Assembly: GCA_000004985.1 (NCBI GenBank)
Contig: GG738923.1
Length of the DNA: 64,000 bases
DNA from: Naegleria gruberi
Lineage: Eukaryota
Strand: one strand, 5' to 3'
Position numbers and translations under genes: made by a program
Notes under the pieces: generated by a model
Told to the model about the DNA's origin: nothing
The model's database searches: none
What the model saw: only the letters and a program-made list of their open reading frames with translations
Part shown: positions 21,150 through 63,973 of the stretch, in pieces
Layout of the letters: every line of letters begins with the position of its first letter
Numbering within the stretch: position 1 is the stretch's first letter

Positions 21150-22766
21150 TTAATTTGAATGCAATCTTTCCAAACTTGGAATATTTCTTCTGATGATGTA
21201 CTTAATGGTCATGTCTTCTTCCTCTTCCTCTTCTTCATCTTGAATCCATTCTTTACCAAGAGATGTATCACTAAAAACGAGGTCTGGGTTTTCAGTCAAA
21301 TCCAAAACTCTTAACTTTTTTAGTTGACTTTCCTTTGAAGCAAGCAAAATAGAAAACTCGTTAGCGATATTACAATGGCGCAACCATAAATGCTCCAAAT
21401 TGGACAAGAATGGGCTTTTGATAAGTGTACCCAATCCAATATCACCCATTTGGTGGGAAAACAGCTTTAGGATTTTGAGATTTTTCATATTGGAACAATT
21501 AAAATACTGATAGCTCATAGATTGGTCTCGGCCCGCCAACTCTAGCTCTGTAAGATTGTTCAATCTATTGGTAATGTATTTTGTAGACTCTATTGAGAGA
21601 TTATCAACTCCATATAACAGCAAAGATGATAATTTGGTAAATGAGGATGTAATTAGATCTATAGAGTGATCTGTAAGTTTTTCGTTATATGAAATATCCA
21701 GCCTTTTCAATGTCTTTCCAAATTCTCCTCCACATAAAATCTGTATTTCTAGATCAGTTAGTCCACTATCAGGCATTGCTAAAGTCTCTAGTTTACTCAA
21801 TTGGTGCAACTGATCTATATTGATAACTGTTGCTCCCTCAAACTCTAATATTTTCAAATTAGAAAACTTGGGATGCTTGAAATAATTTCCACTCATATCA
21901 ACATAACAAGAATGTGTAATTAATTCCACAATGTTAGAAATATGTTGACAATTTGCCAATTCTTCCATTATTGATACGTCACAAACGTCAGAAATATACA
22001 GCTTGGATAAATTTTTCATATTTTCGTTTTGGAGAAGTTGTTTAAAACTACCTTCCTCAATATTACAATGTTTCATCTGAAGACAAGTTAAACTTTCCAT
22101 TCTAGAAATAGCCTTGCAAGGATCTCTAATACCATTCAATTTGATTGTTTTCATATTTTTTCTCAAAATTTCATTATTAGCTATCGGATAAAGGTTTTCA
22201 ATACTTGAATTGAATTCCAAGTTCAATTCAATCAAATTGCACATGAATTTCTCATCAATTAGTCCACAAAATTCACAAATATTTTCATCTGATAAATGAT
22301 TGGAACTCAAATCAAGACTGGTCAAGTTGGGAAATAAGGAAATGTCTGTATTGGACTCTTTCAGTTCCCTGAAAACCTCAATTCCATCTCCTAAACAGCA
22401 TCTAGAGAATGTTAAACATTTCAATCTATCCTTCAATACTTGACTTTCAAAAATTGATTCTAAATACTCTTTACCTTCATCATTACTTGCAGTAATTTCA
22501 ACAAATTCCAACGAATAATCCAAGAGTTCAGAAGCATGCCACCAATCCACAGAAATTAAACGAGCCACCGATAATACAAACTGACTATCCAAATATTCGC
22601 AAATATTAAAACATAAATCCTTGGAAAATACAGATATTAGCCTTCCGAGTGATTTTCTTTTCTTATTTGATGATGATCCGTTAATATTGCCATCATGATC
22701 AGAATCACTATTATCATCATCATCGGAATGGGTGTGAGCATCAATCTGTTCTACTTGTCTTTTCAT
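21150..22766 (-). CDS. Leucine-rich-repeat protein (F-box/LRR-like) with an acidic Asp/Ser N-terminus.
   Basis: 538-aa ORF with many LxxLxLxxN/C repeats (LTSLDLSSNHLSDENICEF, LRVLDLTENPDLVFSD). Confidence 0.55.
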   Translation of the reverse strand: MKRQVEQIDAHTHSDDDDNSDSDHDGNINGSSSNKKRKSLGRLISVFSKDLCFNICEYLDSQFVLSVARLISVDWWHASELLDYSLEFVEITASNDEGKEYLESIFESQVLKDRLKCLTFSRCCLGDGIEVFRELKESNTDISLFPNLTSLDLSSNHLSDENICEFCGLIDEKFMCNLIELNLEFNSSIENLYPIANNEILRKNMKTIKLNGIRDPCKAISRMESLTCLQMKHCNIEEGSFKQLLQNENMKNLSKLYISDVCDVSIMEELANCQHISNIVELITHSCYVDMSGNYFKHPKFSNLKILEFEGATVINIDQLHQLSKLETLAMPDSGLTDLEIQILCGGEFGKTLKRLDISYNEKLTDHSIDLITSSFTKLSSLLLYGVDNLSIESTKYITNRLNNLTELELAGRDQSMSYQYFNCSNMKNLKILKLFSHQMGDIGLGTLIKSPFLSNLEHLWLRHCNIANEFSILLASKESQLKKLRVLDLTENPDLVFSDTSLGKEWIQDEEEEEEEDMTIKYIIRRNIPSLERLHSN

Positions 22767-30255: not shown

Positions 30256-33200
30256 TCAGTAAATTGGAATAACTGGAATGTAATTAGTATTGGCATTACT
30301 AATAAATGATGTTATATCACCACCAAATCCGTTATCAGCATGATATTTCATTCTCAATTGAAATGCTCTTGCATTCAAGTTGGAATTGAGTGGTTGAGCT
30401 GGGAGGGAAATTAACGTACCAGCCACCGAAAGAGTTTTTGAACTTCCTGTTGCATCATACGAAAAGTAATCAAGTGAATAGGTAATAGTGAACGGACTCA
30501 AAAACTGTGGAAGTGCAAACTCTGCAACTTGTTGAAAATAATCTTTGGAAGTTATTTGTATTGAAATATTGGTTCCAACATTCAGATTAAAGTAAATGTA
30601 ATAATTATTGTGGTATCTAGTACTGACTGAGAATGGAACCTTGAAATAAATCCAACCATTGGTTTGATTTTGCATTTCAATGGTTTGGAAAGATATGGTT
30701 GGAGGTATAAAGTTCTCATTCACAAAGTACATATCCAATTCCATTGGCACACCATCTTCTGTCAATGATCTGACAGTTTTCAAGATTTTAATGGATGAAG
30801 GAATGCTTCCAGGAATCACTTTTAAAACTCTATTGTTATTCGAATTGTCCAATTGTAAATAATTAGAATAAGAACCAATTGCCTGATTATTATTCAAATA
30901 ATCGAATGCAGTTAAAGCTCCAGCTCCAGAAACTGCCAACCAATTTGGTGGCTTTAGCATGTAGAGAGAATAGGATGTGGCAGCTGCAAATGCAAACCAA
31001 TGACCTACACCACTTGAATAACCCCAACTTATTCCAGACGAGTCGGTCCATCCAGAGTAAGCAATTCCATTAAAAGCTCCCATATAATTAGATGCAGTAT
31101 AGACATATTTTCCCACACTTACAAATGCATGAACTCTTACTGAACGACTTCTTCTCAGATAGATATTCGCTGGAATGCTAATTACTGTGCTATTTGCAGC
31201 AGCAGACATTATGGAATCCATATCTGAATCACACTTTGTGTCTGGAACTATAGTATCTGTGCATTTCCATGAAATACTACTCAATGGATCTGCGAAGGAA
31301 GATTGAGGAAAATTGAGAGTAAGTTTGTATGGGAAATCAGGAGAACTGGATGTGAAAGTGGTAACAGTGGTTGCTGTGAAGGATATTTTGGTCAGGACAG
31401 GAATGAAAATCAATCGATGACTTCTCGAAATCAGCAGTTGGTTGGTTGTCATGTTGTAAACTCTCAAATTGATTGTGTAATTTCCATAACCTGATACGGT
31501 ACTCTTGACAATTGCCAGTTCGTAATTAGTATTTTCAGTACAATTGTAATCAAATATTGTGGTTGTTGGTTTGACATTTGCAGAATTCAAAACTTCCCAA
31601 GCAACTTTCACAGTTGGATGGTTGACTTCAATACCATTAATGGTAATTTGTTTCTTGATAATGAATGACTGAGTTAGCGTTGTTACTAAATCAGTGGTAT
31701 AGTAGAATGGGTTTGTGTTCAATAAAATCTTTGCTGAAATTATAGGAACTGAGTTTTGACTTGAGCTACTTGTTGAACTATCTAATAATTTTGTTATATT
31801 CAAAAATGCTGATTCGCTCCAAACATTGAATCTGTTTTTCAGTTTCAACTGAATCACATGACTACCGACTGGTAAATTAGTCAATTTAATGGATTTTGCA
31901 TTCGTTCCACTCTTTGCATGAATAGATTGATTCAGATTTGAAATTTCTTGAATGGAATTCAATGAGCTAGTAAATAAATACCATTCGAAATATAAATTCT
32001 CGTCATACAACTTTTCATTTCTTGAATTGATCGCGTTCAGTGCAATGCTTGATTCGTACGTAATTGTTGAATTGAGAGTTGAAATGAAAGGCAGTGGTGG
32101 AATAATCTCTTGTGGATCTGATTGGATTCTTATCAATTGATTGGAAGAGGGATCTTCAAAATGGAGTATTTTGAATTGTAAATCATCTCCTGGAACTAGT
32201 TGTGAATCTGAAGGAAGTTGAACAACCATTTCTCCTTCTAAATATTCTAAAGATGAAATTGTAAAATTACAATAAACTGGAAGTTGACCAATTCTTGGAG
32301 AGTTAAAGAAAGTGTTGCAAATTGGATTCATTGTGGTTTCAATTTTGAAAAGTGTAGCAATTGGAGCTATTATTGTAAACTTTACAAAATATCCAAATTT
32401 ATCGAATGAAAATTTTGAATTCTTGACATGAGTTTTACACTCCATTCCATAATATCCATCTAGACATTCATTACAAGTACCATTCGTCCAATACCCATGA
32501 TCCAAATCATGATAACAATCACATAAACCATCTCTGGAACATTCTCCATTTCCATTACAAGTACTATTCGAAACACAATTCACTTGACACGATGGACCAA
32601 AGTAATTCTCTTTACATTCATCACAATAACTTCCTACATAAACATCACTGGAACATGAACAAGATGAATTATCTGGAGAGCAAATTCCCAAATTATTACA
32701 TGTCATTTCATTTGAACATGATAATTGACTTTTACAATTATCTCCTGAATGGAATGGATCACAAACTGAACAGTCATCTCCAAACCAATATCCATTTTGA
32801 GCAGATGAATAACATTCACACATGTCCAGATCCATACATTGTCCATGTCCAGAACAAACCAATGAATCATTTTGTTTCAATCCAAAACAAGTTGACATTT
32901 CGCATGCATCTCCATAGAATCCTAATTGACATTCACATCCTGATTGAGAACAATTTCCCCTTCCTAAGCATACTCTTGAATAATCAGTTGAATTGTAAAG
33001 TGTCATGTTCTTTCCTAAACATTTGACTTGTTCACATTCCTGTCCATCGTATGGATGTGGACACAAGCATTGATTCATCGACACGCATTGTCCAACTCCT
33101 CCACATACATATTCATGATCCATTTCCAAACCATAACATGAAATCTTTTCACAATCTGATCCAGAATATCCCAATTCACATGAACATGTATTCGTTCCAA

Positions 33201-34076
33201 TACATTTTCCATTTCCAGAGCAAATTTGATTTGAAACGCTCTCATCAGTTGCATTCAAACCATTACAAAACAGATCAATCCTAGTATTTGTAATAATATT
33301 CGAATTGGATCCTTCCTTTTCACACTCGTCTCCATAAAAACCTAATTGACAAGTACAAATTCCATTATTGCCACACGAGCCTCTTCCTGAACAAGCTCTA
33401 GTATCTGTGGAGTTGTAACTGCCACAATATTTCTTCGAACAATCCACACTATAATATCCATCATCACAATTACACACGTCCATGTCGATGCATGCTCCGT
33501 GTCCAGAACAGGCATCACTCTTGGAAGCCTTTTTTCCATAGCAAAATAATGAACTAGTCTTGAACTGGCAACTGAATCCACCATAGCCATCTTCACACTT
33601 TACAAAATGTTAACTATTAACGAAACATTTCAAATAATTACCTTACATAAATTTGGAGAAATACATGTTCCTCTTCCAGAACAAACTGTTGCACTATTTG
33701 AAGTGATTTGGAAACATCTCGGCACTGAACAATCAATTCCCAAATATCCCTTATTACACGAGCAGAATCCTGTTGATCTACATTTGCCATGTCCACTACA
33801 AACCAATGGATCATCTGGGGAATAGCCAAAACACTTGGCAATTTCACATTGTGTTCCAGTGGCCAATTCATTACATTGACATGTATCCACTGATGTACAT
33901 GTACCATTCCCTGAGCAAACAGTGGCGGAGGAAGCTGAAACTCCAAAACATGTTATTGCACTTCCCTCCACTGCATCTCCACTCCTTAGCGTAGACAGTA
34001 TTATGGCTATCAGAACCGAAGTTAAAATTAACAAGTGTCTTCTTGTGTTGCAGATGTGAATATTTGTTCGTGTCAT
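30256..34076 (-). CDS. Large secreted or membrane protein (about 1200 aa) with a signal peptide, about 15 tandem EGF-like (tenascin-type) repeats, and a roughly 700-aa Cys-poor C-terminal domain. One intron at about 33603..33657.
   Basis: ORF 33630..34076 opens with a signal peptide plus EGF repeats (CFGVSASSATVCSGNGTCTSVDTCQC). It ends at a gtaatt..taaag intron and joins in frame to ORF 30256..33483, which starts CEDGYGGFSCQ. The motifs CxCxxGYxGxxC recur throughout. Confidence 0.6.
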
Positions 34077-34493: not shown

Positions 34494-36052
34494 TTAAAGG
34501 TCTGAAAGTTGTTCAACAGCTTCCTTGATTGGTTTTGGGAAATACTTGAGTGTGAATGTCATTTCTGTACTTTCGGTAATGTTAATTCTGTGACATTTTC
34601 CAACGAGTTTCAAAAGACATTTGCAAAAGTTTTGAATGATTTCCATTTCATCATCAACCTTTTCCAAGTCAATTCCTAAAATATTCTCAATCAGTTGAGG
34701 AATAGTGGAATCTTCTTCTTGACCATCTATTTCAAGGGAAATGGTATCCCTTTCCTCTTCTGTAAAGGCATAAAGCATTTCATGTTTCAATGAAATTTCA
34801 GTTAATTTCCCATTTGCCAATTCAAATACAGCAGTTGCAAAAAATCTTTCCTCCTGAATGTATTCTGTAAAACCAATATAATAAGCTTCATGAATCGTGT
34901 AATACTTGAGCTTTGATTTAAGTTGTTGGAACATGGTTTCATCAATGTTGATATTGAAATCACGATTAAGCCAAGATTCCTCGAAGAGGAACAAGTTATG
35001 AGCCTTTCTTGCAGATTGTTTCAGAATTTCACTTCTGATCATGTCGAAATATTCCATTTTCTGTGAGAAACTCAAATCAGAATGGACAATCGGATTGAGA
35101 ATCATCTCTAAACATTTCAATCCTTCTTGTACTTCAATACTCTCGGCTGATTTGTTGAAAGCATCATCGTCTTTAGATTTCAATTCCTTAATCATACTCT
35201 TCATGACATTTGAATTCGTATCAACCATTGGTTCCATGCAACAATATTCTTTAGCACCAGCACATGTCATTAAAAAAGTGAGAAATGCTTTCCAATCCCA
35301 TTCACTTGGAATTTCTAATTCTTTCATAACATTGTTAATTGCTTAATGTCAATTTTACCACTGCCCATTGGTTCATCTTCCCAAGTATAGTAATAATTCA
35401 AATACCAAATAAGATTCTTCTCTTGAAAATTTGAATCTCTCACTTTCAAATCATAACTTCTCTCCAAATTATCCACTCTAGTATTTGGTCCATAAACATA
35501 ATGTTGAGTAAAGATCATAAACTCTTTTGATTTCTTTAAAATTTTCAATTCTGATCTTCCTCCCTGAGTTTGTGAAAAAACTCCACCCACATATGAATTG
35601 AACGAAACAATTCCACTCTTAAATAAATTGGAATAAGTCTTATTCATGCAGAGTACGTTAAAATTGGTATCATTTTCTAATAGATATTGAAAATAGGATA
35701 TTCTATCATCAAGGACCATGCAATTTCTAATTTCTGCATTAACTTTCAGCAGACAACCTTGCAAAAAATCACAAGATTCATCCTTTACTTTTGCATTCAT
35801 TTTGGATAATCTATTCAAAAAGAATAATTCATTATCATTGGATTCAATAGATTCGGAAGAAATTCGTAATTCCTTGTTGATTGATTGGTTGACCAATCGG
35901 AATGTTAAAACTTCTCTGAAGGTGAGAAAGGAGTAGACATTTAACAACACAGCACTATTGAACCATGAGGAGTGATCGTGTGTTGTTGATTTTGCTTTTT
36001 TAGATTCGGATTGGGAAGATTCGTCTGTTTGCTTTCGTTTCATTTTTTTCAA
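34494..36052 (-). CDS. Unknown protein, or two abutting ORFs with an ATGA stop/start overlap at 35324-35327. Probably one gene carrying a 1-nt frame disruption.
   Basis: ORF 35324..36052 (F-box-like N-terminus, NSAVLLNVYSFLTFREVLTFRLVN) ends ...LTML with a TGA that overlaps the ATG of ORF 34494..35327. There is no canonical intron at the junction. Confidence 0.3.
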
Positions 36053-37735: not shown

Positions 37736-38569
37736 TTAATAATTATAGGGTGAGAAAGAAAAAACGGCACCTTTGCAAAGTTTAAAGGATGGATCTTCTC
37801 TTGATATTACAAATGGATTTTGAGATGATTTTGAAATTCTTGGAATCCATGAGACATGAACACCAAATGCTCTGGAGCATCCATTGGAATATTTTGTAAT
37901 CTCTAATGCTGAGTTAAAGTTGGATTTCTTGTAATAAATCAATCCTTGGCAGTTGTTACTGGTACAATAGGAAAAGCCATCATTTGAAATTTTGATTAAT
38001 ACTTCATGAGAGGAAATGAGTGGGAGAGTAATACTTGGTGAACAAAACAGGAAATAAACAAGTGAGATTCCAATTGATTTCAATTCTGCTATGTAACTGT
38101 GAATATAATCGTCCAATTTGGCTAGTCCAATAAGTGTTAAAGAAATGAAATAGTTCACTTTCAATTGGGAACATGTCATTAATGAATCTTCTTGGTTATC
38201 GTTCTGTGTAACGACCCATTGTAAATTATCCAAATAATAAAATTGTTTTAAAAAGGAAATTGCAGATGTTGAATTTCTCAAATATAAATCCATTCGAAAC
38301 TTGTTCCAATCCTTCTTCTCCACAAGTGCAAGATCATTTAATTGTACATATCCTTTACGTAATTCATTTGATGTTATATGTTCGATCCGATCGGGTCTTG
38401 GAGCATTCCTAAACCTTTCCGATAATACACGTTTTTGTAATCTTGTAATTGTTTTTTTCCAAGTTTTGTTCACTCTCTTGAATTTCCACTGATAGAAGTA
38501 TGGAATGAATCCAAGAATGATATCTAATAAATCATCATAAATGTAAAACTCTAGTTGATCTTGTTGCAT
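37736..38569 (-). CDS. Unknown protein with an F-box-like N-terminus.
   Basis: 277-aa ORF. Its N-terminus (LLDIILGFIPYFYQWKFKRVNKTWKK) is F-box-like. Confidence 0.3.
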   Translation of the reverse strand: MQQDQLEFYIYDDLLDIILGFIPYFYQWKFKRVNKTWKKTITRLQKRVLSERFRNAPRPDRIEHITSNELRKGYVQLNDLALVEKKDWNKFRMDLYLRNSTSAISFLKQFYYLDNLQWVVTQNDNQEDSLMTCSQLKVNYFISLTLIGLAKLDDYIHSYIAELKSIGISLVYFLFCSPSITLPLISSHEVLIKISNDGFSYCTSNNCQGLIYYKKSNFNSALEITKYSNGCSRAFGVHVSWIPRISKSSQNPFVISREDPSFKLCKGAVFSFSPYNY

Positions 38570-38759: not shown

Positions 38760-39986
38760 CTACTGAACAGTACATTTCTTCTCCTTGTGGTTCTTGTTTG
38801 TTTCAATTTTTTGTGGGTTTTCCAAAATGTGCAAATGAGTATGTGTCAATAATCCAAGTCTCTTATCGAAATCAATTGTTCCTTCGCCTGTTTTTGCACT
38901 TGTTTCAATAAACGAGACAGCTCCTATTGCTTTTGTAAATTCAATTCCTTCCTCTTTTGAAATTGGTTCATCAACAGTAGTAGAATAAAACAAACTATTC
39001 CAGTAGAGTGAATCTTTGAGATCGTTCTTTGTGGAAACAACAACAAATGTAGCGGTAGGAGCACCAAGAGTGCATTCCCACATCAAATGCTCAACTAAAT
39101 ATTTCAAACTTGAAAAATCATTGATGGCATAGTTCATTGTAAAAAGATTTGTCTGAGGATAAGAAAGTGGTCGCAATCTATCATAATCTTCTCCACCTGC
39201 TGTGTCCCAATATGCAACAGAAAAATCTGCTTGAGTTTCAATACCATCTACTATGCACTGTACATGCTCCGTTTTTACAAAACTGTCAAATACAGTTGGT
39301 GTGTAATCTTGAGGAAAGGAATGATACCCAACCCTATTCAAGAGACAAGTTTTTCCAACAAATGTAGCACCCATAGAAACCCATTTGAGATAATGATAAC
39401 CGGTTATTGGTTGACTTTTTGGTTCTAATCTCAGTGGTTCTTGGAGAGGTGTTTGAATGGATGACTCTTCAATAAATATTTGTTGAGCAATTCTCTTTCT
39501 TATAATACTTTCACATTTAGTATTTTTAAAAGTACCATTCTCTAGGGCTATTTTTGAAATATTATCACTAATTGATCTAATATATGATATTCTCTTTTGT
39601 CTCTTTTCTTGGAAAACTTTCCAATTATTTTCATCAATTCTCTTCCAAATTTCCTTGATGAATCGAAATCGGTAATTTCCTTCTGTTTCTTTCCATCCAA
39701 TTTTCGTACACAAAACATTGTTAATTAATTCCATCTTGTTATTGATTAAATCTTTCCAAAACCAATCACTCCACGAATAAATCATCAAACATTTTCCGAA
39801 ATTAATTGTATTGATCAAAGTTTGATTATAAAATTCGTTTTGAATTTCCTCAGATTGTGGACGATAGAATAAACTGGCCAAACCATTTAATTCTACCCGA
39901 GAGAGAAACTCCAAAATATAGAGCATTACATTTTGATCGAGTTTGTTAATAGATGAAAAGAGTTCCTTCTCTGTTGATCGTTTCAT
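38760..39986 (-). CDS. F-box-like N-terminal domain fused to a divergent Rho-family small GTPase domain.
   Basis: N-terminus: MLYILEFLSRVELNGLASLFYR. The C-terminal half is a Rho/Rac-like G domain: KWVSMGATFVGKTCLL (G1), TPTVFDSF (switch I), YWDTAGGEDYDRLRPLSYPQT (G3, with Gly in place of the catalytic Gln), VVSTKNDL (G4), ETSAKT (G5). Confidence 0.6.
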   Translation of the reverse strand: MKRSTEKELFSSINKLDQNVMLYILEFLSRVELNGLASLFYRPQSEEIQNEFYNQTLINTINFGKCLMIYSWSDWFWKDLINNKMELINNVLCTKIGWKETEGNYRFRFIKEIWKRIDENNWKVFQEKRQKRISYIRSISDNISKIALENGTFKNTKCESIIRKRIAQQIFIEESSIQTPLQEPLRLEPKSQPITGYHYLKWVSMGATFVGKTCLLNRVGYHSFPQDYTPTVFDSFVKTEHVQCIVDGIETQADFSVAYWDTAGGEDYDRLRPLSYPQTNLFTMNYAINDFSSLKYLVEHLMWECTLGAPTATFVVVSTKNDLKDSLYWNSLFYSTTVDEPISKEEGIEFTKAIGAVSFIETSAKTGEGTIDFDKRLGLLTHTHLHILENPQKIETNKNHKEKKCTVQ

Positions 39987-43634: not shown

Positions 43635-44297
43635 ATGCAACGAGTATTCATTCCCTTCATTGTTGGTTTGTTCTGTTTATTTGTAACTATTCGAAAGGTT
43701 TCTGGAAACAATTCAAACTTTGAGAATTATTCGAAAGTTGAAGATGTAAAACTTCCATTGAATTGTAGTACTAGCATGTCAGTTGTGTTTCCAACTGAAT
43801 TGTTATTGCAATCTTTCTTACATGAAAAACATTCGAATAGCAACTTTACTTCTCTTTGGATAAATTTCATGATCGCCTCGAAAAGGGAAGGAATCGAATT
43901 GGCAGAATTTGGATTAAACTCTCAAAATTCGAATCAAGAATTTCTCTCCTTAATGCAAGAAATGAAAAATAACGCAACCGAAACCAAAACTAAACTAGAA
44001 GAATTACTTTTCACTCTAAATTTACCTACAATGAATGAAATGCAAGCACTAGTCTATGGAAACGATTGTTCTCTAAGGGCAGTTCCATTAGATTCCATTC
44101 GAGGTCCATGCGATTTACTCTTCATTTCAATTCATCGTATGTCCATGACCAAAACCATGAATCTTATGGTTATGGCATTGAACGGAGTTGACCAAAGAGT
44201 TGTTTCGATTGCTTACAATGAATTGATTACTTCTTCAAAAACAATTGGTAAACTTTTGCAGTTATCCAAAAGTTTACAATGTTATCAAACTTTGTAA
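43635..44297 (+). CDS. Secreted 4-Cys protein, paralogue A of a tandem pair. Novel family.
   Basis: Signal peptide MQRVFIPFIVGLFCLFVTI. Shares a conserved core with the next gene: KLPLNCSTSMSVVFP, NDCSLRA, RGPCD, IAYNEL. Confidence 0.5.
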   Translation: MQRVFIPFIVGLFCLFVTIRKVSGNNSNFENYSKVEDVKLPLNCSTSMSVVFPTELLLQSFLHEKHSNSNFTSLWINFMIASKREGIELAEFGLNSQNSNQEFLSLMQEMKNNATETKTKLEELLFTLNLPTMNEMQALVYGNDCSLRAVPLDSIRGPCDLLFISIHRMSMTKTMNLMVMALNGVDQRVVSIAYNELITSSKTIGKLLQLSKSLQCYQTL

Positions 44298-44457: not shown

Positions 44458-45147
44458 TTGCTATTCGAAACACACAAGAAAATGAAAATAATTCTCATTG
44501 CAACCTGTCTCCTTCTTGGAGCCATCCTTGTTTCCTGCCAGCAACAACAACAACAAGGTACTGATCAAACAAGCTCAACCTCTTCCAATCAATCCAACGA
44601 TATCAAACTTCCATTGAATTGCAGCACCAGCATGTCAGTAGTCTTTCCAGCAGAAATAATTCTACAAGCCTATCTTGAAAGTGACACTGCCAATGTTACA
44701 GCTCTTTGGCTCAATATCATGCTAGCTTCCCAAAAACAAGGTGCCTCACTCACTCAATCAGCCATTTCCAAATATTCCTCCAATTCTCAATTAGTTTCAC
44801 TTTTACAAGAATTGAATGCAAACATGACTCAAATGGAACAACAACTTTCTGGATTATTCTCATCTTTGCAATTGCAACAATTACCTGACATTCAAAATCT
44901 TACCTATGGTGATGATTGTTCATTGAGAGCTGCTACAGTTGATAATTTGAGAGGTCCATGTGATTTTATATTTGTCTTGATTCATAGAATGGCAATGGCA
45001 AAGGTTGTTAACTTGTTGGCCATTTCTGAAGGTGATATTAATCAACAAGTTGGTGATATTGCTTACAATGAATTGGTCAATTCATCCAATACTATTGAAA
45101 AATTATTGCAAATTGCAAAGGCATCCAATTGCTATGCCCAACAATAA
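44458..45147 (+). CDS. Secreted 4-Cys protein, paralogue B of the tandem pair.
   Basis: Signal peptide MKIILIATCLLLGAILVSC. About 40-45% identical to 43635..44297, with the four Cys conserved. Confidence 0.5.
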   Translation: MLFETHKKMKIILIATCLLLGAILVSCQQQQQQGTDQTSSTSSNQSNDIKLPLNCSTSMSVVFPAEIILQAYLESDTANVTALWLNIMLASQKQGASLTQSAISKYSSNSQLVSLLQELNANMTQMEQQLSGLFSSLQLQQLPDIQNLTYGDDCSLRAATVDNLRGPCDFIFVLIHRMAMAKVVNLLAISEGDINQQVGDIAYNELVNSSNTIEKLLQIAKASNCYAQQ

Positions 45148-48394: not shown

Positions 48395-48877
48395 TTATTT
48401 CTTAACTGACTTTTTGGTGTAAACTGGCTTTCTAACCTTATTTTGTGTCTTGTTTTGTTTTCTCTTCAAAGACAAGTCTTTTAACTTTCTTCTGAGATCA
48501 CTGTGCTCTCTATCAGGTGCACAAGCAGCACTCTTGTCTCTGTTATAACATTTACACTTGTTATTACCAACACATCTTCCTCTTCCATAACAGACATTCT
48601 TATCGGTGGATTTCTTTCCGTAACAAGTGAAAACTTCTTCCTTCTTTGGCTTCTTTAAACCAGTAGCTCTACATCTTTTTGGTTCGCTCAATTCTGGGGC
48701 AAAACATTCACACTTGTTATTGCCAACACATTTTCCTCTACGAGAACAGACACCCTTATCAGTGGATTTCAAACCGAAACATGTGAAAACTGGTTCCTCA
48801 GCACTAACAACATTGCAAGCAATGACACCGAGAATGGCTACAAGAACGACAATAAGCAAGCTCTTTCCAAAGAACAT
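48395..48877 (-). CDS. Small basic secreted protein made of two EGF-like/cysteine-knot repeats.
   Basis: Signal peptide, followed by an internal duplication: EPVFTCFGLKSTDKGVCSRRGKCVGNNKCECF and EEVFTCYGKKSTDKNVCYGRGRCVGNNKCKCY. It has a lysine-rich C-terminus. Confidence 0.5.
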   Translation of the reverse strand: MFFGKSLLIVVLVAILGVIACNVVSAEEPVFTCFGLKSTDKGVCSRRGKCVGNNKCECFAPELSEPKRCRATGLKKPKKEEVFTCYGKKSTDKNVCYGRGRCVGNNKCKCYNRDKSAACAPDREHSDLRRKLKDLSLKRKQNKTQNKVRKPVYTKKSVKK

Positions 48878-56346: not shown

Positions 56347-57696
56347 TCAGTCAGGTCTGATAAATCCTAAAGCGAACTCTGATCTATTAGATATTGGATA
56401 AGCGACACAATGCCCTTCCTGAATAATTTGTTTAAAATTTTGCATTGTTTCTGCCCTAAAGACATGCTTTTTACATTTTGTACAAAATCTCTTTTCATCA
56501 GCATAGTCAATTCGTTCCAATTCAGAATATTTCATAGGGCACTCGAAAATCCATTCACAATTTTCTATAAATGATTCTTGTTTTTTTACAGAAAAGGATG
56601 GTTTAGGAATTTTAAATTTTTCATCTGTTTTTGGATCTATTGTTCTCAAAATTTCTCTCACAAGTGGTAAACTTGTTGGTGAATGAATTTGTAAATGTTG
56701 AATTCTTCGTTTCATAACAATCATCCAATTTTTCACATTCAAACTCTGTTGAAATCGTGGGAAATAGAACAACACCATTGGTTTCCAAATTGTATTTTGA
56801 ATCAAATCAACATGATACTCGTCTGGATTCTTTTTGAAATGTTCCTCATCGAGAAATGATCGATACATGCCTTTGAAGGTCATTGACAAGTAGAACAACT
56901 CCTTGAGTGTTAGATAGGAAGCAACTATGGCAGTAACTTCAATTATTGTCTCTCCATTTCTAAATAAAATTCCAATATCTTTGTAAACATTTGGCGTATT
57001 TTCAATAATTGATATTACAATATTATTATCTTCAGTCAATTCAGCTGAATCTGCAAATCCACATTTAAAACTTCTCAAATGTTGGTAATCTGAAATAATT
57101 TCTCCATTTAATACATTTGCCAATTTCTCCAAATCTTGTCTGCTAATTCCTTCTTGGTAAATTATCCCAAATTTATCAAATAATTTTGAAACTAGTTGTT
57201 CATTTTCAAATAGAGAAATAACCATCTTACATCCCATCTCATTAATGATTTTTCCTATTGTAATATTATTTCTTCTTTGTTCTCTAATAGCAGCATCTAT
57301 TGCTGTATAATCCGATCCATAAATCTCCAATGAGGTTAAGGTTGGGAATTTAAAGTCAATTAATGCAACTGACACTTTTTCAATTCGTTTTCGTTTCGTA
57401 TTTGAAGACTTGTTTCTATTAACAATTTCAATTTGATTACAAAAAGTTGTTTTGAAAGAACTGGTTGCATAGAAAAACTTCAATTCATAACTTGGAACAC
57501 TAGTTTCTAATAGATGAATATTGACATTCCCATTTGATGATGTTATTTCAATGGATTGAATTTCTTCTTTAAAGTTGAACAACTCAATCAATTTTCTCTT
57601 CAATTCTTGAAACTTGTCAGGATCTACGCTGATAACACCTGGTGGTTGATCTTTTTCCATTTTTTTTAAATCTATTTCGGAAGAATTACCGATCAA
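56347..57696 (-). CDS. Unknown protein. Its start is probably at the internal Met.
   Basis: 449-aa ORF. It overlaps the upstream gene's stop by 11 nt unless an internal Met is used. Confidence 0.35.
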   Translation of the reverse strand: MIGNSSEIDLKKMEKDQPPGVISVDPDKFQELKRKLIELFNFKEEIQSIEITSSNGNVNIHLLETSVPSYELKFFYATSSFKTTFCNQIEIVNRNKSSNTKRKRIEKVSVALIDFKFPTLTSLEIYGSDYTAIDAAIREQRRNNITIGKIINEMGCKMVISLFENEQLVSKLFDKFGIIYQEGISRQDLEKLANVLNGEIISDYQHLRSFKCGFADSAELTEDNNIVISIIENTPNVYKDIGILFRNGETIIEVTAIVASYLTLKELFYLSMTFKGMYRSFLDEEHFKKNPDEYHVDLIQNTIWKPMVLFYFPRFQQSLNVKNWMIVMKRRIQHLQIHSPTSLPLVREILRTIDPKTDEKFKIPKPSFSVKKQESFIENCEWIFECPMKYSELERIDYADEKRFCTKCKKHVFRAETMQNFKQIIQEGHCVAYPISNRSEFALGFIRPD

Positions 57697-59155
57697 ATAC
57701 TTGTTTTTTCTTTTTTGAAAATGAGAGAGTTTGTTGGCCTCTATCTAATCTTTTTAAATTGGAGTTGTTTTCTTTCCTTTTGTGCACCATTTTTGGAAAA
57801 TCAACCAAGTTTACCAATTGGTCATTCATTTTCCACTTATTAATATATTTCTCAATCTTTTCATTCTCATAGTCAAGTTTAAAAACTAAGGATCTAATGG
57901 TGTTTGATAATTGTGAAGACGCAATGTGGTCTATTGCACGGAGTGAGAACATTTCACTTTTAAAAGAAAGCTGTTCAAGTTTTTTCAAATAAGTGCAATT
58001 ACTAAGATATTCAATAGATAGATCAGTTACACTAGTTGACGATATATTTAAATAAGTGAGAGGGGATTCTCTTTCCAAATTTTCAACAAATCCTTTTGTA
58101 CTCTGGTCATCCAACATTGTTTCACTTACTTCTATTGATAAATATGTTAAATTTTTCAAATATTTTGCAATGGATTGAAGAGCATTCTTTGGAGAGTTAA
58201 TAAACAACTGAAGATGTGTCAAATTTGTTGAGAGACGACCTGAAAACATTTCATTCAAATCATCGAGAGTAAAATTAATCCCATGTAAACCTTTTTGTAT
58301 AGATATACTGGTCAAGCTTGTCAAATGTATACTTGTTCCTAACAATTTCATAGAATTCAAATCACTTGATGAAATATGATTCAATTTGATTTTTTCCACG
58401 TTTGACATATTCTCTGTATCAATATCTTTCAAATTTACCTTTCCATATCTTATTGATATTTCCTTCAGTTCTTTCATTTGCGTTATCAGCTTGAAACATT
58501 CTGGTGTGGTGTTTGCTACAGACATTTGTTGTAAATGTTTCATATTTTCATAAATTATTTGCATTTGTTCATAGTCTATTGTATTGAATACAGAAAACAC
58601 CTTCAATTTCCCCAATAATGGATTGCTAGCTACCTTTCCAATTCCACTCTTTGTAATATCAGACCAAATTGTCAATTTCTCCAGATTTCCAATATAAGGA
58701 CAAGCACTAATTGCCAAAGCAACATTATAATCGCACCCAACAACTTGATATCCTAAAAGAAACAAACTCAATTCGGTCAATTGCTCCAACTCTTTACATT
58801 TGAATAATTGACACAATTCATTAGAATAGTTCATTTGTGATTTTCTAGATTCAATTTTTAAAACTTTCAAGCTTTTCATCTCTGATAAATTCTCACAAAA
58901 TTCCACCACACATGATTCATCTTCAACGAGAAAAGAAAGTGATTGAATATTTTTCAATATGAATGATGATGATCGGAATAAAGAAACAAGAATTGAATCT
59001 CTGATTTGGATCATGTCATACAATTTACATTTAATCACCTCGGATCGCCATAGCTTGGACACCATTGAACAATTGATAATTATTTGTTTCCATGGGAGAA
59101 ATTGCATTATTTGAAAGCAAACATCTGCTGGAATGAACACCTCTTGTTGTGTCAT
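57686..59155 (-). CDS. F-box-like plus leucine-rich-repeat protein.
   Basis: The N-terminus IPADVCFQIMQFLPWKQIIINCSMVSKLWR is F-box-like. Multiple LRRs follow (LTHLQL, LTSLTSISI, LKELKEISI). Confidence 0.5.
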   Translation of the reverse strand: MTQQEVFIPADVCFQIMQFLPWKQIIINCSMVSKLWRSEVIKCKLYDMIQIRDSILVSLFRSSSFILKNIQSLSFLVEDESCVVEFCENLSEMKSLKVLKIESRKSQMNYSNELCQLFKCKELEQLTELSLFLLGYQVVGCDYNVALAISACPYIGNLEKLTIWSDITKSGIGKVASNPLLGKLKVFSVFNTIDYEQMQIIYENMKHLQQMSVANTTPECFKLITQMKELKEISIRYGKVNLKDIDTENMSNVEKIKLNHISSSDLNSMKLLGTSIHLTSLTSISIQKGLHGINFTLDDLNEMFSGRLSTNLTHLQLFINSPKNALQSIAKYLKNLTYLSIEVSETMLDDQSTKGFVENLERESPLTYLNISSTSVTDLSIEYLSNCTYLKKLEQLSFKSEMFSLRAIDHIASSQLSNTIRSLVFKLDYENEKIEKYINKWKMNDQLVNLVDFPKMVHKRKENNSNLKRLDRGQQTLSFSKKKKQVFDR

Positions 59156-59501: not shown

Positions 59502-59874
59502 TTACGTTCGTGGTGAAAAATAAATGTTTCTTTTTGATATTGTACATAGGAAGTTTCTAAGAATTCCTTAATATTATGAACTCTCAATGACCATCTCTCA
59601 GGAAAGATGAGTACGTGAATTTTCAACAGCAGTAACATGAAGCATCATATGAGTAGCTTCAAATTACGACAAAGCAATTATTATCCCGGAGTATCTTGTC
59701 TCCGTAACAATCATCATTAACATTGTGGACCATTGGTTCTGGATGATATTTGAAATAACCATCTTGTGGAGAAAAGATAATGAAAGGTACAAAAAAGGAA
59801 TGAATTCGGAAGGATAGCTACAATTCATTCTCTCCAACAATTTTGTGAATCATTGTTTTGAACTTTAATAAAAA

Positions 59875-60453
59875 ATGGCGCAAGATCAACAACCAACACT
59901 TCAAAATCAAAAAACTCCAACAGCACAGCAACACAAGCAATACATTATTACCAAAATATTAGTAGCATTTGTGGCCTTGCTTCATGTTTTCTTTCTAATT
60001 TTGGAAATGTTTTTATGGACTACACCTTTTGGACGTCAAATATCTGGTTTTCCAGAGGCATTTGCACAAATGACACAGGTATTAGCTGCCAATCAAGGTC
60101 TATATAATGGATTTTTGGCCATGGGATTGATTTGGTCAATTTTTTCAAAACAGTTTTACTTTGAATTGCAATTGTTTTTCCTCGGATGTATTGTGATTGC
60201 TGGAATATTTGGAGCTGCAACTGGAAGTATTGCAATTTTAGGAATTCAAGCTGCACCTGCACTTGTTGTGTTGCATGTGGTGTTATTGGAGAGATTTCTG
60301 TTGCCTTTCCTTAAGAAAAGATGGGCATTGAGAAGGGAACAAAGAATGGCTAAGATTGGAGATGAGAATTCAAATATGAGTCTTTTAAGTTCAACAGATA
60401 CACAAGGAGTTGAATATCAGCAATATAATGTTCAACAGGAAGCCATTATTTAA
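59875..60453 (+). CDS. Small 4-TM membrane protein (DUF1304-like).
   Basis: 192-aa ORF with four hydrophobic helices (ILVAFVALLHVFFLILEMFLW, LYNGFLAMGLIWSIF, FFLGCIVIAGIFGAATGSIAILGI, ALVVLHVVLL). Confidence 0.45.
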   Translation: MAQDQQPTLQNQKTPTAQQHKQYIITKILVAFVALLHVFFLILEMFLWTTPFGRQISGFPEAFAQMTQVLAANQGLYNGFLAMGLIWSIFSKQFYFELQLFFLGCIVIAGIFGAATGSIAILGIQAAPALVVLHVVLLERFLLPFLKKRWALRREQRMAKIGDENSNMSLLSSTDTQGVEYQQYNVQQEAII

Positions 60454-60668
60454 TAAAAATTGTAATGTAAATCAATATTGAATATTCAAAATTAGAAACA
60501 AGGATACCAAACTCTGTAATTGCCCAAACTGGAAATTGAAAGAAATTTCACATTGGCACTTGGGTTATTAATTTTTTAAGATCTGCCATTTGATATCAGG
60601 GATTGAACTTGTAAATACCCTCCTAGTAGGAATTACAATAGGAAACTATTCCATGCTTTTACAAAAAA

Positions 60669-61703
60669 ATGAAACAACTTAATGAGGACGAATTATTGTT
60701 AATTTTTTCATATTTAAATTTTTCAGAGGTTTTAAATGTTTCGTTAATGAAAAATCGGAAAGTGTACAATTTGATTGGATCTTGTCGCGCGTGGAGGGAA
60801 ATGTATTTAGATTGTATATCTATTATTCAGGAATTTAAAAAGTTTGATGAAAGATGTTGTTGTTCCGAGGAGGCTGGAAAACTTGCTCTTTCCTCTGATT
60901 TTAGAAAATTATATTTTGAACAGATGAGAGAATATTATTTACGTTCGGATATGAATGAACAAGCACTTGTGGAGAGAATTGAAGAATTGGAATCGAACAG
61001 GAAATCTTCATCAACAACTGTTTTTAGAGAATATCATGAATTATTGAAAGATTATCCAAATATCAAAAGTAATGACTTGTATGTTAAATTTATGGTGGTT
61101 GGAAGTAGTTGTGGAAAGACTTCTTTTTTGTATCATTTGAGTTTGGGACTGCATCCTCCTTATTCGAATGTTGCTTCTAATTTGCAATACTTACCAAGTA
61201 TTCATGATGGATATTCCACAAATTTGATATTTGGATCTTCTTTTTGTAATATTGGATTTTGGGATACATCGGGAAAATCAGAATATAAAACACTTAGACC
61301 ATTGAGCTATCCAGGGACAGATGTGTGTTTTCTTTGCTTTGACTGCATGAGCTATGATTCATTGGATTTAGCGATTAATACATTTTTGGAGGAATTAACA
61401 AGTCATATGAAACAAGAAGGGAAAACTTTTCCTATTGCTTTGCTTTCAACAAAGCATGATTTGCAGCAAGATAGAAAGGAAGTATTGAAATTACTAATTT
61501 CAAAACAACAAAAACCAATTAATAGTCAACTTGGAGAAAGAATAGCAAAAGCAATCGGATGTGTAACCTATTTGGAATCCATTCTTCTTCCATCTAAAGA
61601 TTACTTTAAGATAATTTTCAATATTTCAAGAATTGAGAAACTTCCAGTAACAACAGAAAAGCAATCCTTGCTACAGAAACTAGGTAGATTTTTCAAAAAG
61701 TAA
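60669..61703 (+). CDS. F-box-like N-terminal domain fused to a divergent Rho-family GTPase. Paralogue of 38760..39986.
   Basis: N-terminus LLLIFSYLNFSEVLNVSLMKNRKVYNLIGSCRAWREMY. G domain: FMVVGSSCGKTSFLY (G1), FWDTSGKSEYKTLRPLSYPGTD (G3, with Lys at the catalytic Gln position), LLSTKHDL (G4). Confidence 0.6.
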   Translation: MKQLNEDELLLIFSYLNFSEVLNVSLMKNRKVYNLIGSCRAWREMYLDCISIIQEFKKFDERCCCSEEAGKLALSSDFRKLYFEQMREYYLRSDMNEQALVERIEELESNRKSSSTTVFREYHELLKDYPNIKSNDLYVKFMVVGSSCGKTSFLYHLSLGLHPPYSNVASNLQYLPSIHDGYSTNLIFGSSFCNIGFWDTSGKSEYKTLRPLSYPGTDVCFLCFDCMSYDSLDLAINTFLEELTSHMKQEGKTFPIALLSTKHDLQQDRKEVLKLLISKQQKPINSQLGERIAKAIGCVTYLESILLPSKDYFKIIFNISRIEKLPVTTEKQSLLQKLGRFFKK

Positions 61704-61723
61704 CATTATTAATTATTATTGGT

Positions 61724-63973
61724 TTACAATTCAATAGTTGAAAGAACAGTTCCTGGAGAAATCAACTCTTTACAATCCTCTTCTCTATCTTCAAAAAGTA
61801 AATCGGTTGGAGAGTTGACCATAGGGGAGTCCATATTTGGAGATCCAATGCTCTCTGTTTTGAAAATAGTAGCAACATTAGAAATTGGTTTCTCTCCCAA
61901 GGCAGTAATAGTCCATTCATGATTATAGATTGGATCATTGCATTTGTGTTTTTGGAGAAGCTTTTTGAAATTCTTACGTTTTCCACACAAGAATAAAATA
62001 TCACTCGCTTCAACTTTTCCAGTTCCGACAGGATTAGTGTAGACATATCTGTATAGTTTGTCATATCTGTATCTACTGACACCCAATAGAATGAGATCTT
62101 TTTCAAAGCAAGCATCAACAAGCTCTGAAACTGGTAAATTAACAAAAACTGTTGGAACGGGAACTTCAAAGATTATAGATTGAGATTCTGTAGCTGAAAA
62201 CTCATCAGCAAGCATTTGGTCCACCAAATCAACAACTCTTCTATTATGGAAGGATTGTGCCAACAGCTTACTAAGGAAGGAAGAACTTGGGAAAATCTTT
62301 CCAGAAATATAAAAATCAGAAAACAAACAGAATTGATCAAAATCATCGATATCATAATCTAATACTTGCTTTTCTCTTAACAATCTCACCTTTTGATAAG
62401 TTGGAATACCTTCGTGTTGGAAAAACTTCAAATTGGATCTGTTTACCAATTCGAGAAGGTACTTCTTTCGAGGATCAATTACAGCCATACCCAAAGCCAA
62501 TTTGATTGCTTCAGAATCGATTGTGTACTCATTTTCGAAAGAACCAACTTCATCCTCATCACCATCATTTCCTGTATTCATCAACGAGGCATCTTGGGTA
62601 AAGTACATGACAGTTTGGGCAGATGAGAAACCAGCTCTTCTCAAATCATGAGATTTGATTGGATTACCAGAAATAAAATAGACATCTTTGAAATATTTCA
62701 ATCTTTCGTAGAGAGAGTTGAAATACTTGTCAACAAGGTGGGTCATGAATACTATTGGAGTGTTTCTATTTCTTCTCTGAATTGATCTAACCAATGAACA
62801 AATAATTAATGGTTGTTGGAATTCTCCTAGAACAAGGATATGATCTTTCAATTCAAATGGAACTTTGAAACTTGAAATGAGGAATTGTTGTTTAGTTCTT
62901 GGAGTTCTTGTCATGCTATAGCTAGCAATAATGGAATTGTAGAATTCATCTTCCTTTTCTTTCCTTTCTTGCTCTGATTGTATTTCTCTTATTTGTCTCA
63001 GCTGACTTCTCATTTCTGCAAAGCAAGGTTCAGTAGCGATGAGTTTGAGTAAAATTTCCAAGTGAAGATTATTCATTTCTTCCTGTTGTTCAGTTTCAAT
63101 TTCATCACTCAACAGATAGATGTCAGCATTATGACCTCCAACAGAGTATGTCAATCCATATCTGTTTGATTTTCTATTATCTTTCTTTTTCTTATTGTCC
63201 ACTTCATTTTCTTGTTTTTCTGTAATCTTTAATATTTCGATTTGACCTTTGGTGAGCTCTTCGTGTGACTGTTCTCCAGCATTCTTCAAGTATTCTTCGA
63301 ATCTAGATTCAAAGTACTCGATTTCAATAGCATCTTCCTTTGTTTTTTCTACACCATAGTCCATTCTTGAACTTTTCCTGGAAATGTATTGATCCTTGTC
63401 TCCTGTTTGAGTGAATGTTTGAACCTGTTCAGCATGCTCAATGCTCTTAGCAATACAGAAGCATTTATCACCATCCTTGATGAGGTATCGAGATGGATTG
63501 AGGAATATTCTTCCCTGCTTATCTTCTAAAGCATAGGCAGCAATTTCGCATTTCTTGAGCAAGGTTCTAGCAGCATCAACGAATAAACTTCCAACAAATG
63601 CCTTACTGAACTTTACACGATAAATTTCACAATTCAAACCCTCTGAATATTCCACAATCCACTTGATATCATTTTCAATTGATGTAGTATTCTTTCCGGA
63701 TTGCATGTCAAACTTGTGGTGGTCTCCTGTGAGTAATCCCTTAGGAATCTTGTCCATTTCAATATCAACATCAGCACCACTCAACAAGTTGAACAAAAAA
63801 GAACACAAGCCACCAGAGCTTGAAGAGCCTGAAAGAAGCTTTGTACAGAAAGACTCATTACAAATCACAACCTTGGCACCTGCCTTAATGGCGTAATGTT
63901 TGGATTCAATCAAGTTGATTTGGGCATAGACCTTCAAATTTTGATTAAAGTTTTTAAGAGCAATAGTGGTCAT
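61724..63973 (-). CDS. C-terminal cytoplasmic RCK/gating-ring region of a Slo/BK-type K+ channel. Partial: the 5' exons with the TM/pore lie beyond the window end.
   Basis: Tandem RCK-like segments (ILVLGEFQQPLIICSLVRSI..., VVICNESFCTKLL...). The C-terminal block RYVYTNPVGTGKVEASDILFLCG parallels BK [23 protein letters not shown]. The ORF stays open to the window edge. Confidence 0.5.
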   Translation of the reverse strand: MTTIALKNFNQNLKVYAQINLIESKHYAIKAGAKVVICNESFCTKLLSGSSSSGGLCSFLFNLLSGADVDIEMDKIPKGLLTGDHHKFDMQSGKNTTSIENDIKWIVEYSEGLNCEIYRVKFSKAFVGSLFVDAARTLLKKCEIAAYALEDKQGRIFLNPSRYLIKDGDKCFCIAKSIEHAEQVQTFTQTGDKDQYISRKSSRMDYGVEKTKEDAIEIEYFESRFEEYLKNAGEQSHEELTKGQIEILKITEKQENEVDNKKKKDNRKSNRYGLTYSVGGHNADIYLLSDEIETEQQEEMNNLHLEILLKLIATEPCFAEMRSQLRQIREIQSEQERKEKEDEFYNSIIASYSMTRTPRTKQQFLISSFKVPFELKDHILVLGEFQQPLIICSLVRSIQRRNRNTPIVFMTHLVDKYFNSLYERLKYFKDVYFISGNPIKSHDLRRAGFSSAQTVMYFTQDASLMNTGNDGDEDEVGSFENEYTIDSEAIKLALGMAVIDPRKKYLLELVNRSNLKFFQHEGIPTYQKVRLLREKQVLDYDIDDFDQFCLFSDFYISGKIFPSSSFLSKLLAQSFHNRRVVDLVDQMLADEFSATESQSIIFEVPVPTVFVNLPVSELVDACFEKDLILLGVSRYRYDKLYRYVYTNPVGTGKVEASDILFLCGKRKNFKKLLQKHKCNDPIYNHEWTITALGEKPISNVATIFKTESIGSPNMDSPMVNSPTDLLFEDREEDCKELISPGTVLSTIEL

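Follow-up and report, generated by a model that had tools for sequence, protein, structure and literature searches.

Two atypical Rho-family genes with F-box-like heads in Naegleria gruberi, candidate members of a catalogued Rac-like expansion

RhoBTB and Rab40 are small GTPases that join cullin ligases (PMC4931677; PMC13236570). For Naegleria gruberi and N. fowleri, Herman et al. 2021 (PMC8296547, Supplementary Material 4, Table S8) tabulated fusions of F-boxes with domains of the Rho, Rab, Ran and G-alpha types, and they already propose 'GTPase-dependent ubiquitination'. Here we analyze two genes, encoding protein 1 (38760..39986, minus strand) and protein 2 (60669..61703, plus strand), in a 64,000-nucleotide stretch of N. 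gruberi contig GG738923.1 (assembly GCA_000004985.1), hereafter the window. A preliminary interpretation made from the DNA letters, which we call the sequence-only reading, took both genes to encode F-box-Rho fusions and held that no such family had been described; the catalog of Herman et al. already contains such fusions. We favor, with moderate confidence, the reading that each gene is, independently of the other, a divergent member of a Rac-like GTPase expansion specific to the Naegleria lineage, whose proteins have an N-terminal extension headed by an F-box or a degenerate version of one. The class itself is on record from both N. gruberi and N. fowleri, and the window genes are members of it that were left unflagged.

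In Table S8, 14 N. gruberi Rac rows are flagged for an F-box, some of them also for Kelch or BTB (PMC8296547). The window genes appear there as plain "Rac" (XP_002669751.1 for protein 1, XP_002669712.1 for protein 2; Herman et al. 2021, BMC Biol 19:142), and their 'additional domain' cells, which draw on SMART, Pfam and CDD, are empty, as are those of XP_002676342.1 and ACER01000104.1. Many of the Rac rows that are unflagged as F-box proteins still bear such an N-terminal head. Naegleria probably has more F-box-Rac genes than the published count, since degenerate F-boxes are missed by Pfam and SMART. According to Herman et al., genetic tools for Naegleria are currently lacking (PMC8296547). 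The value of what follows is mostly corrective: the loci are tied to published accessions, the F-box-Rho architecture is recognized as already on record, and the deposited model XP_002669712.1 is identified as probably short.

Two N. gruberi Rac genes with Rho-type G domains

Both open reading frames (ORFs) recognized in the sequence-only reading are real, uninterrupted and about 21 kb apart. The gene for protein 1 is intronless and encodes 408 amino acids (aa). It corresponds to XP_002669751.1 in the version that Herman et al. 2021 corrected by hand, and its exact sequence is printed as the corrected entry in the 'N.gruberi' sheet of Table S8 (PMC8296547). The protein 2 gene is an ORF of 344 aa, and the deposited XP_002669712.1 is 100% identical to it over residues 45-344. 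The dictyostelid setting assumed in the sequence-only reading has to be abandoned: both proteins match N. gruberi accessions exactly, which rules out a Dictyostelium origin. The window's G+C content of ~34% and its long intronless ORFs do not suit Dictyostelium either. When 5.8 billion proteins were searched with protein 1, the sole full-length relative was XP_002676342.1, an N. gruberi 'rho family small GTPase' with 49% identity over 97% coverage. Exact-sequence look-ups with protein 1 and with P0121 matched no contigs, and the searched protein collection held no entry for the exact window proteins.

The deposited model of protein 2 begins at Met45 (60801) and leaves out the F-box-like residues 1-44 (60669..60800). 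The upstream in-frame ATG at 60669 has the context AAAAAAATGAAAC, identical to that of the curated start of protein 1; the 44 extra residues can be aligned with N-terminal sequence from further N. gruberi Rac paralogues; and the 344-aa ORF was called independently on a metagenome contig. Because of this shared start context, the family alignment and the contig comparison, we favor the 344-aa protein over the 300-aa model, and the deposited XP_002669712.1 probably lacks 44 N-terminal residues.

The contig in question (L001, 2084 bp, from the ENA ERZ929261 metagenome) comes from a closely related Naegleria strain, and on it the DUF1304 gene precedes that of protein 2, as in the window. The contig is collinear with positions 59616..61749 of the window, with 34 substitutions and with intergenic indels concentrated at 60521-60653; in the flanking intergenic DNA, indels of up to 16 bp lie upstream of the ATG at 60669. 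Across the 1,035-bp ORF, this one related strain differs at 5 sites, 4 synonymous and 1 non-synonymous, which gives a ratio of non-synonymous to synonymous change (dN/dS) of ~0.06; under neutrality, four or more synonymous changes out of five would arise with P=0.0065. One of the synonymous changes falls at codon 33, within the F-box-like extension. This pattern of substitution indicates that protein 2 is still under purifying selection, and we consider pseudogene status unlikely given the 4 synonymous differences against 1 non-synonymous.

As the sequence-only reading had it, each protein contains a Rho/Rac-type G domain, with RhoA and Rac1 as the best solved relatives. Pfam Ras (PF00071, cut-off 21.6 bits) is well exceeded in protein 1 (87.4 bits, E=1e-24; residues 201-369, 38880..39386, minus strand) and in the more divergent Rho-like domain of protein 2 (63.2 bits, E=2.9e-17; residues 140-304, 61086..61580, plus strand). 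The G domain of protein 1 aligned end-to-end with solved RhoA, Rac1 and Cdc42 in phmmer searches (best E=4e-27, to RhoA), and every top match in the databases and in the Protein Data Bank (PDB) is Rho, Rac or Cdc42. Its AlphaFold model compared with RhoA/Rac1 in Foldseek at a target template-modeling score (TM-score) of 0.82-0.85, and a fold search with the full model returned Rho GTPases only. The few database matches of protein 2 bear Rho/Rac-type motifs (DTAGQEDYDRLRPLSYP) and CaaX ends. Alignment with Rac1 and RhoA shows that each protein has the Rho insert that separates G4 from G5: protein 1 reads DSLYWNSLFYSTTVDE here and protein 2 reads QQDRKEVLKLLISKQQK. The AlphaFold2 (AF2) model of protein 1 has a helix at 321-333 in this region.

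The two genes had been described as paralogues, a label that is loose. BLASTP aligned protein 1 and protein 2 over 181 aa of the G domain at 28% identity and found no N-terminal similarity between them; the family alignment puts their mutual identity at 20% and their identity to human Rac1 at 35% and 37%, respectively. With only 20-28% G-domain identity they are not close paralogues. Recent tandem or segmental duplication was considered and rejected: the genes lie on opposite strands, ~21 kb apart, their similarity is confined to the G domain, and each is nearer to human Rac1 than to the other.

Nucleotide-binding motifs and C-termini

Substitutions of Gly12 and Gln61 abolish both intrinsic hydrolysis and that stimulated by GTPase-activating proteins (GAPs), so that Rnd and RhoH, rendered GTPase-deficient by changes at G12 and in switch II, are constitutively active (PMC13236570). 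We located the Gln61 position in three alignments: MAFFT with human Rac1 and RhoA, HMMER (phmmer) to RhoA chains, and a 21-sequence family alignment. In all three it is occupied by Gly265 in protein 1 (WDTAGGEDY) and by Lys203 in protein 2 (WDTSGKSEY). The replacement of Gln61 by Gly and by Lys, first proposed in the sequence-only reading, therefore holds in three independent alignments, which exclude the misalignment of switch II that the same reading had named as its potential undoing. The switch II segments are DTAGGEDY at 39183..39206 on the minus strand, with the Gly265 codon GGA at 39192..39194, and DTSGKSEY at 61263..61286 on the plus strand. The P-loops are likewise as first read. GATFVGKT of protein 1 (39348..39371, minus strand) has the canonical length, with Thr for Gly12 and Phe for Ala13, and GSSCGKT of protein 2 (61101..61121, plus strand) is a GxxxGKT sequence, one residue shorter than GxxxxGKT.

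Neither protein retains the Gly12 and Gln61 of a classical switchable Rho; Thr and Gly stand in their place in protein 1, a short P-loop and Lys in protein 2. Beyond these positions the two differ. Protein 1 keeps the GxxxxGKT length, Thr35, DxxG, TKxD, SAK, the Rho insert and a CaaX box. Protein 2 has Ser for Thr35 and SILL in place of the G5 SAK motif, and retains TKHD and DxxG. Judged as possible pseudoGTPases, protein 1 has lost hydrolysis residues only; protein 2 has a short P-loop and no G5, yet keeps DxxG and TKxD. Both proteins are atypical Rho-family members with eroded hydrolysis machinery. Since its nucleotide motifs are intact and Gly12 and Gln61 are gone, protein 1 is predicted to bind GTP but not hydrolyze it, and is probably a GTPase-deficient, GTP-locked Rho with a signature of the Rnd/RhoH type. 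For protein 2, the P-loop short by one residue and the lost G5 make GTP binding doubtful, and the protein may be entirely nucleotide-free. The sequence-only reading had called both proteins constitutively GTP-bound. That description is reasonable for protein 1, whose motifs are intact, but unwarranted for protein 2, given its short P-loop, Thr35Ser change and missing SAK.

Protein 1 falls in a small subfamily. Its N-terminal 200 residues, used in an exhaustive HMMER search of 1.84 billion representative sequences, retrieved only four, N. lovaniensis XP_044543528 and XP_044552815 and two environmental fragments, and Table S8 supplies a third N. gruberi member, ACER01000104.1 (PMC8296547). The subfamily thus comprises three N. 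gruberi genes (XP_002669751.1, XP_002676342.1 and ACER01000104.1), two N. lovaniensis genes and the two fragments. Its hallmark is a conserved helical N-terminal module of ~190 aa together with a CaaX box. In protein 1 the subfamily-specific helical linker spans residues 59-195 (39402..39812, minus strand); G64, W72, D74, W77, N89, R106 and F109 are invariant in the subfamily alignments (A4 and A6), and AF2 places helices at 105-182 with a predicted local distance difference test (pLDDT) score of 67-92 and an overall predicted TM-score (pTM) of 0.72. The CaaX box of protein 1, CTVQ (38763..38774, minus strand), is preceded by basic residues and is a predicted prenylation signal. Every complete subfamily member examined has one (CTVQ, CSVQ, CSKQ or CDVQ), the end of ACER01000104.1 being excluded from this comparison. 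Against this constancy, drift has affected the catalytic motifs and extends even to those that bind nucleotide. In the family alignment, switch II reads DTAGG, DTVGN, DISSK, DTCER or SYFGS and G4 reads TKND, LKKE or LKKD, and the P-loop is at times one residue short.

This drift bears on how protein 1 is understood. The G motifs of its relatives decay further than its own (DISSKES, DTCEREE and SYFGSDEF in switch II, LKKE in G4), so GTP binding is not a conserved requirement in the subfamily, which weakens the case for a GTP-locked switch. It bears equally on the proposal that both proteins are constitutively GTP-bound and that their abundance is set by self-turnover through their own F-box, dependent on a Skp1-Cullin-F-box (SCF) ligase, which would replace the GTPase cycle. 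F-box proteins are normally substrate receptors, and self-turnover is a secondary property. Protein 1 would suit the proposal, with its nucleotide-binding motifs kept and its Gly12 and Gln61 lost, and expression level and a short half-life do govern Rnd, RhoH and similar atypical Rho proteins that are GTPase-deficient (PMC13236570). But the one-residue P-loop deletion and lost G5 of protein 2 leave its GTP binding in doubt, DxxG and NKxD have disappeared altogether in subfamily relatives, and self-turnover would depend on what is itself only a candidate F-box. We regard this proposal as improbable.

Loss of Gln61 is not peculiar to the window genes. Among 19 sampled N-extended Naegleria Rac-like proteins, 7 keep it (DTAGQ) and 12 have lost it. 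Because 7 of 19 retain Gln61, its loss is frequent without being a defining feature of the architecture, and the idea that it is a hallmark of F-box fusion was dropped.

The C-termini of the two proteins have diverged. Protein 2 ends in SLLQKLGRFFKK (61665..61703 including the stop, plus strand), in which SLLQ aligns with the family CaaX box; its end, ...EKQSLLQKLGRFFKK, aligns with ...KKC-a-a-Q in its relatives. At the DNA level, TCC stands where TGC would encode the CaaX Cys, AAA occupies the position of the relatives' stop codon, and a 7-residue extension follows. We infer that protein 2 has lost its prenylation signal, a former CaaX box.

The loss of this signal and the erosion of the catalytic motifs could also be taken to mean that the two genes are decaying products of birth and death in a hugely expanded family, functionless or on their way to becoming pseudogenes. 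For the Naegleria GTPase expansions, Herman et al. describe gene birth and death as well as pseudogenes (PMC8296547), and several Rac rows in Table S8 are marked as pseudogenes. In that table each window accession occurs once, in the N. gruberi sheet, which would fit there being no listed one-to-one N. fowleri orthologue. Against decay, both ORFs are intact, N. gruberi and N. lovaniensis have both conserved the protein 1 module along with an intact CaaX box, and protein 2 differs from that of the related strain by the 4 synonymous and 1 non-synonymous changes described above (dN/dS ~0.06, P=0.0065). Decay is a very unlikely account of these genes.

N-terminal heads and their likeness to F-boxes

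The F-box-like segment of protein 1 covers residues 12-58 (39813..39953, minus strand), with the core LDQNVMLYILEFL at 39903..39941, and that of protein 2 covers residues 3-42 (60675..60794, plus strand), with the core LNEDELLLIFSYL. The F-box-like helix of the sequence-only reading is present near both N-termini, as L-x-x-I-L-x-F-L (LYILEFL) and LLIFSYL, but its identity as an F-box has the support of profile comparisons and falls below Pfam thresholds. In the hidden Markov model (HMM) searches with PF00646 and PF12937 that had been suggested as a check, neither protein reached the gathering threshold.

To provide a reference, a profile (A7) was built from three sources: F-boxes that Herman et al. 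had flagged on Naegleria GTPases, two Kelch-F-box-Rho proteins whose Pfam F-box matches were precomputed, and a single window ORF above the Pfam F-box threshold. It excludes the short-linker N-extended Rac family and includes one long F-box-flagged Rac, XP_002682912. Searched against the PDB, A7 matched 47 sequences at E<=0.01, all but two of them named as F-box proteins, including FBXW7 (1.6e-11), SKP2, FBXL5, KDM2A/B, Cdc4 and beta-TrCP; the two otherwise named were ankyrin-repeat protein B and ECT2-like. When compared with A7 by hhalign, the N-terminus of the protein 1 subfamily aligned over residues 12-58 with 79% probability (P=1.5e-5), where 95% is usually asked. With the reference plus two N-extended Racs, the score was 32.3 and the probability 87%; scores over the two references ran from 29.7 to 32.3. 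The similarity covers all three helices. The scores of 150 column-shuffled queries had a mean of 9.7, a standard deviation of 1.8 and a maximum of 15.9, so that 0/150 came near the real score. Protein 2 compared with F-box profiles at probabilities from 57% (A7) to 86%, against the same customary 95%. AF2 helices in protein 1 at 18-25, 30-37 and 46-53 lie as an F-box would need, but at pLDDT<55. In protein 2 the Trp after helix 3, nearly invariant in A7, is kept.

Several observations weigh against an F-box on these genes. Pfam F-box gave no match to protein 1 at E<=1, and protein 2 scored 14.7 bits for F-box-like (E=0.026, cut-off 24.3) and 11.3 bits for F-box (E=0.36, cut-off 20.5). No member of the protein 1 subfamily passes Pfam F-box, the scores being none or 12.3 bits. 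The Pro of 'LP', invariant in A7, is replaced by Asp in protein 1 and by Asn in protein 2, and protein 1 also has Tyr for the Trp that follows helix 3. In the full-length AlphaFold model of protein 1, pLDDT is below 50 over residues 1-78 and the fold there is uninformative. A search of the PDB and of the 1.84 billion representatives with the protein 1 N-terminal profile found no canonical F-box protein. Residues 1-44 of protein 2 are absent from the deposited model. A separate AlphaFold run on protein 1 residues 1-200, with a 6-sequence alignment, reached a mean pLDDT of 50, and the PDB sequence search with the N-terminal profile returned only ribosomal proteins S27a and L34 at chance level (E ~0.08-1.2). 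A word-seeded search with a two-sequence N-terminal alignment gave 0 matches at E<=10, missing even the query member P0001; we ascribe this to a probable tool artifact and do not count it as evidence.

The relatives of the two proteins bear on the same question. The layout common to the aligned N-extended Racs opens with L-[NPD]-x-[DE]-x(3)-I-x-S-F-L, continues through 100-150 linker residues into the Rho domain and usually closes with a CaaX box. The head of protein 2, QLNEDELLLIFSYL, is very near SLNEDEFGVIFSFL of XP_002673500 and RLNTDELGVVFSFL of ACER01000821, and its extension can be aligned with that of the flagged Rac XP_002671699 (head DLNDDVFHIILSFL), a member of the N-extended family that passes Pfam F-box at 22.1 bits. 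Stronger F-box matches (best E=1.9e-13) occur in Kelch-F-box-Rho proteins of N. gruberi, Willaertia and metagenomes. Proteins with a Kelch propeller, F-box, Rho domain and CaaX box include P0058 (Willaertia magna KAL9648570.1), P0060/P0130 (JGI metagenome) and P0089 (Logan). All three Kelch-F-box-Rho proteins aligned at switch II have Pro or Gly for Gln61 (DTAGPEDY, DTNGGEDY). Because P0058 is from Willaertia magna, F-box-Rho architecture with loss of the catalytic Gln reaches beyond Naegleria.

The N-terminal region might instead be no working F-box at all: a lineage-specific helical extension, at most derived from an F-box, that regulates or localizes the Rho domain intramolecularly and has no SCF role. 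In favor of this, protein 1 and its whole subfamily escape Pfam F-box, the 'LP' proline is gone, and Herman et al. left these genes unflagged as F-box proteins. Conservation in protein 1 runs through residues 59-195, far past an F-box, with invariant W72, D74, W77, N89, R106 and F109, and the confident AF2 helices at 105-182 (pTM 0.72) are consistent with packing of the linker on the G domain, while being no demonstration of contacts. This alternative stays credible because of the failed Pfam test and because the conserved linker extends so far past the F-box-like segment. What speaks for F-box ancestry is the profile-profile likeness to a validated F-box profile, far above shuffled queries and across all three helices, together with related N-extended Racs that pass Pfam (XP_002671699, 22.1 bits) and the strong matches in the Kelch-F-box-Rho proteins (best E=1.9e-13). 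On balance we think the helical-extension alternative unlikely, though a serious competitor. The F-box call for the two genes is plausible, if weak and sub-threshold. Profile comparison makes it likely that both heads descend from F-boxes; whether they still bind Skp1 is a more finely balanced matter, for which we would put the chances at slightly below even.

Other window ORFs have similar starts. At least five begin with F-box-like heads: 57686..59155 (minus strand), which passes Pfam F-box at 21.4 bits; 37736..38569 (minus strand), directly downstream of the protein 1 gene (E=0.0022); 35324..36043 (minus strand); 9783..10382 (plus strand); and 21150..22766 (minus strand), in which the head is accompanied by leucine-rich repeats. 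F-box heads are very common in the N. gruberi genome, and finding one on a GTPase is therefore less surprising.

Under the reading we favor, in which the window genes are divergent members of the Rac-like expansion, protein 1 would most likely be a prenylated, membrane-bound, GTPase-deficient Rho that stays GTP-bound and is not switched by GAPs, and protein 2 would probably be a more degenerate, non-prenylated, soluble pseudoGTPase scaffold. The N-terminal F-box-like helices would dock on Skp1-Cul1, and each protein could act as a substrate receptor of Cullin-RING ligase 1 (CRL1), its Rho domain offering effector-like partners for ubiquitination; alternatively, the F-box-Rho protein may itself be turned over and short-lived. 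By analogy, then, these proteins would be coupled to SCF through Skp1. A bolder extension of this scheme, which we consider possible but doubtful, is that Naegleria has a third, independent type of GTPase within a cullin ligase, in which membrane-anchored, hydrolysis-dead Rho proteins with degenerate F-boxes serve as Skp1-Cul1 receptors for Rho effectors or regulators, with the protein 1 subfamily as a pseudoGTPase branch missed by standard domain searches.

Elsewhere in the window, the long ORF at 61724..63973 (minus strand) corresponds to the C-terminal RCK region of a BK/Slo-like K+ channel (Pfam BK_channel_a and Slo-like_RCK); it shows no pore part, which may lie upstream, past the window end. 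Tandem ORFs at 43635..44297 and 44482..45147 (both plus strand), of ~220 aa each, have a hydrophobic N-terminus (possibly a signal peptide) and a common motif, KLPLNCSTSMSVVFP, and are apparently a local duplication. The ORF at 30256..33483 (minus strand) encodes a 1075-aa Cys-rich protein that looks EGF-like by eye, and two small Cys-rich ORFs, 33630..34076 and 48395..48877 (both minus strand), have hydrophobic N-termini and the common pattern 'TCFG..S....VCS..G.C'. These Cys-rich ORFs may form a lineage-specific family.

Comparison with known systems

Euglenozoa are grouped with Heterolobosea in Discoba. TbFRP, a FYVE-F-box-Ras-like GTPase of Euglenozoa described in 2013, resembles the window proteins in having an F-box N-terminal to a Ras-superfamily G domain (PMC3593210). 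It differs in its FYVE domain and in a G domain that is Ras-like rather than Rho-type, and no homology was detected between the extensions.

The closest described relatives are the Naegleria F-box-GTPase fusions themselves, which come from the same organism and the same gene family, both window genes being rows of Table S8 (PMC8296547). Common to them and the window genes are the L-x-x-[DE]-x(3)-I-x-S-F-L head, ~100-150 aa of linker, the Rho domain and, usually, CaaX. The difference is that the window genes are unflagged there and fall under Pfam F-box thresholds here (PMC8296547). Loss of Gly12 or Gln61 and shortening of the P-loop are not discussed by Herman et al. (PMC8296547).

In the G domain, protein 1 is most like Rnd1-3 and RhoH, in which the Gly12 and Gln61 equivalents are substituted while the other nucleotide motifs and CaaX are intact. 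Those proteins are animal-specific and have no N-terminal extension, and their residues differ from those of the window genes, which vary even inside the protein 1 subfamily (G, N, K, R or a lost motif).

Rab40 is metazoan. It belongs to the Rab family and has a C-terminal SOCS box and a link to Cul5, in contrast to the window proteins; the likeness is that of a small GTPase bearing its own cullin-adaptor motif (PMC13236570). RhoBTB offers the nearer parallel, a Rho domain with non-canonical catalytic residues joined to a cullin-ligase adaptor module (PMC4931677; PMC13236570). In RhoBTB, however, tandem BTB domains lie C-terminal to Rho and engage Cul3, whereas the adaptor-like module of the window proteins is N-terminal and F-box-like and therefore points to Cul1/Skp1 rather than Cul3. 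Pfam found no BTB match in either window protein, and both end soon after the G domain. Nor are they RhoBTB orthologues; N. gruberi has separate RhoBTB genes. A Skp1-Cul1 role would parallel RhoBTB-Cul3 and Rab40-Cul5 (PMC4931677; PMC13236570), and if Skp1 binding is true, the window proteins would be the Cul1 counterpart of these two systems.

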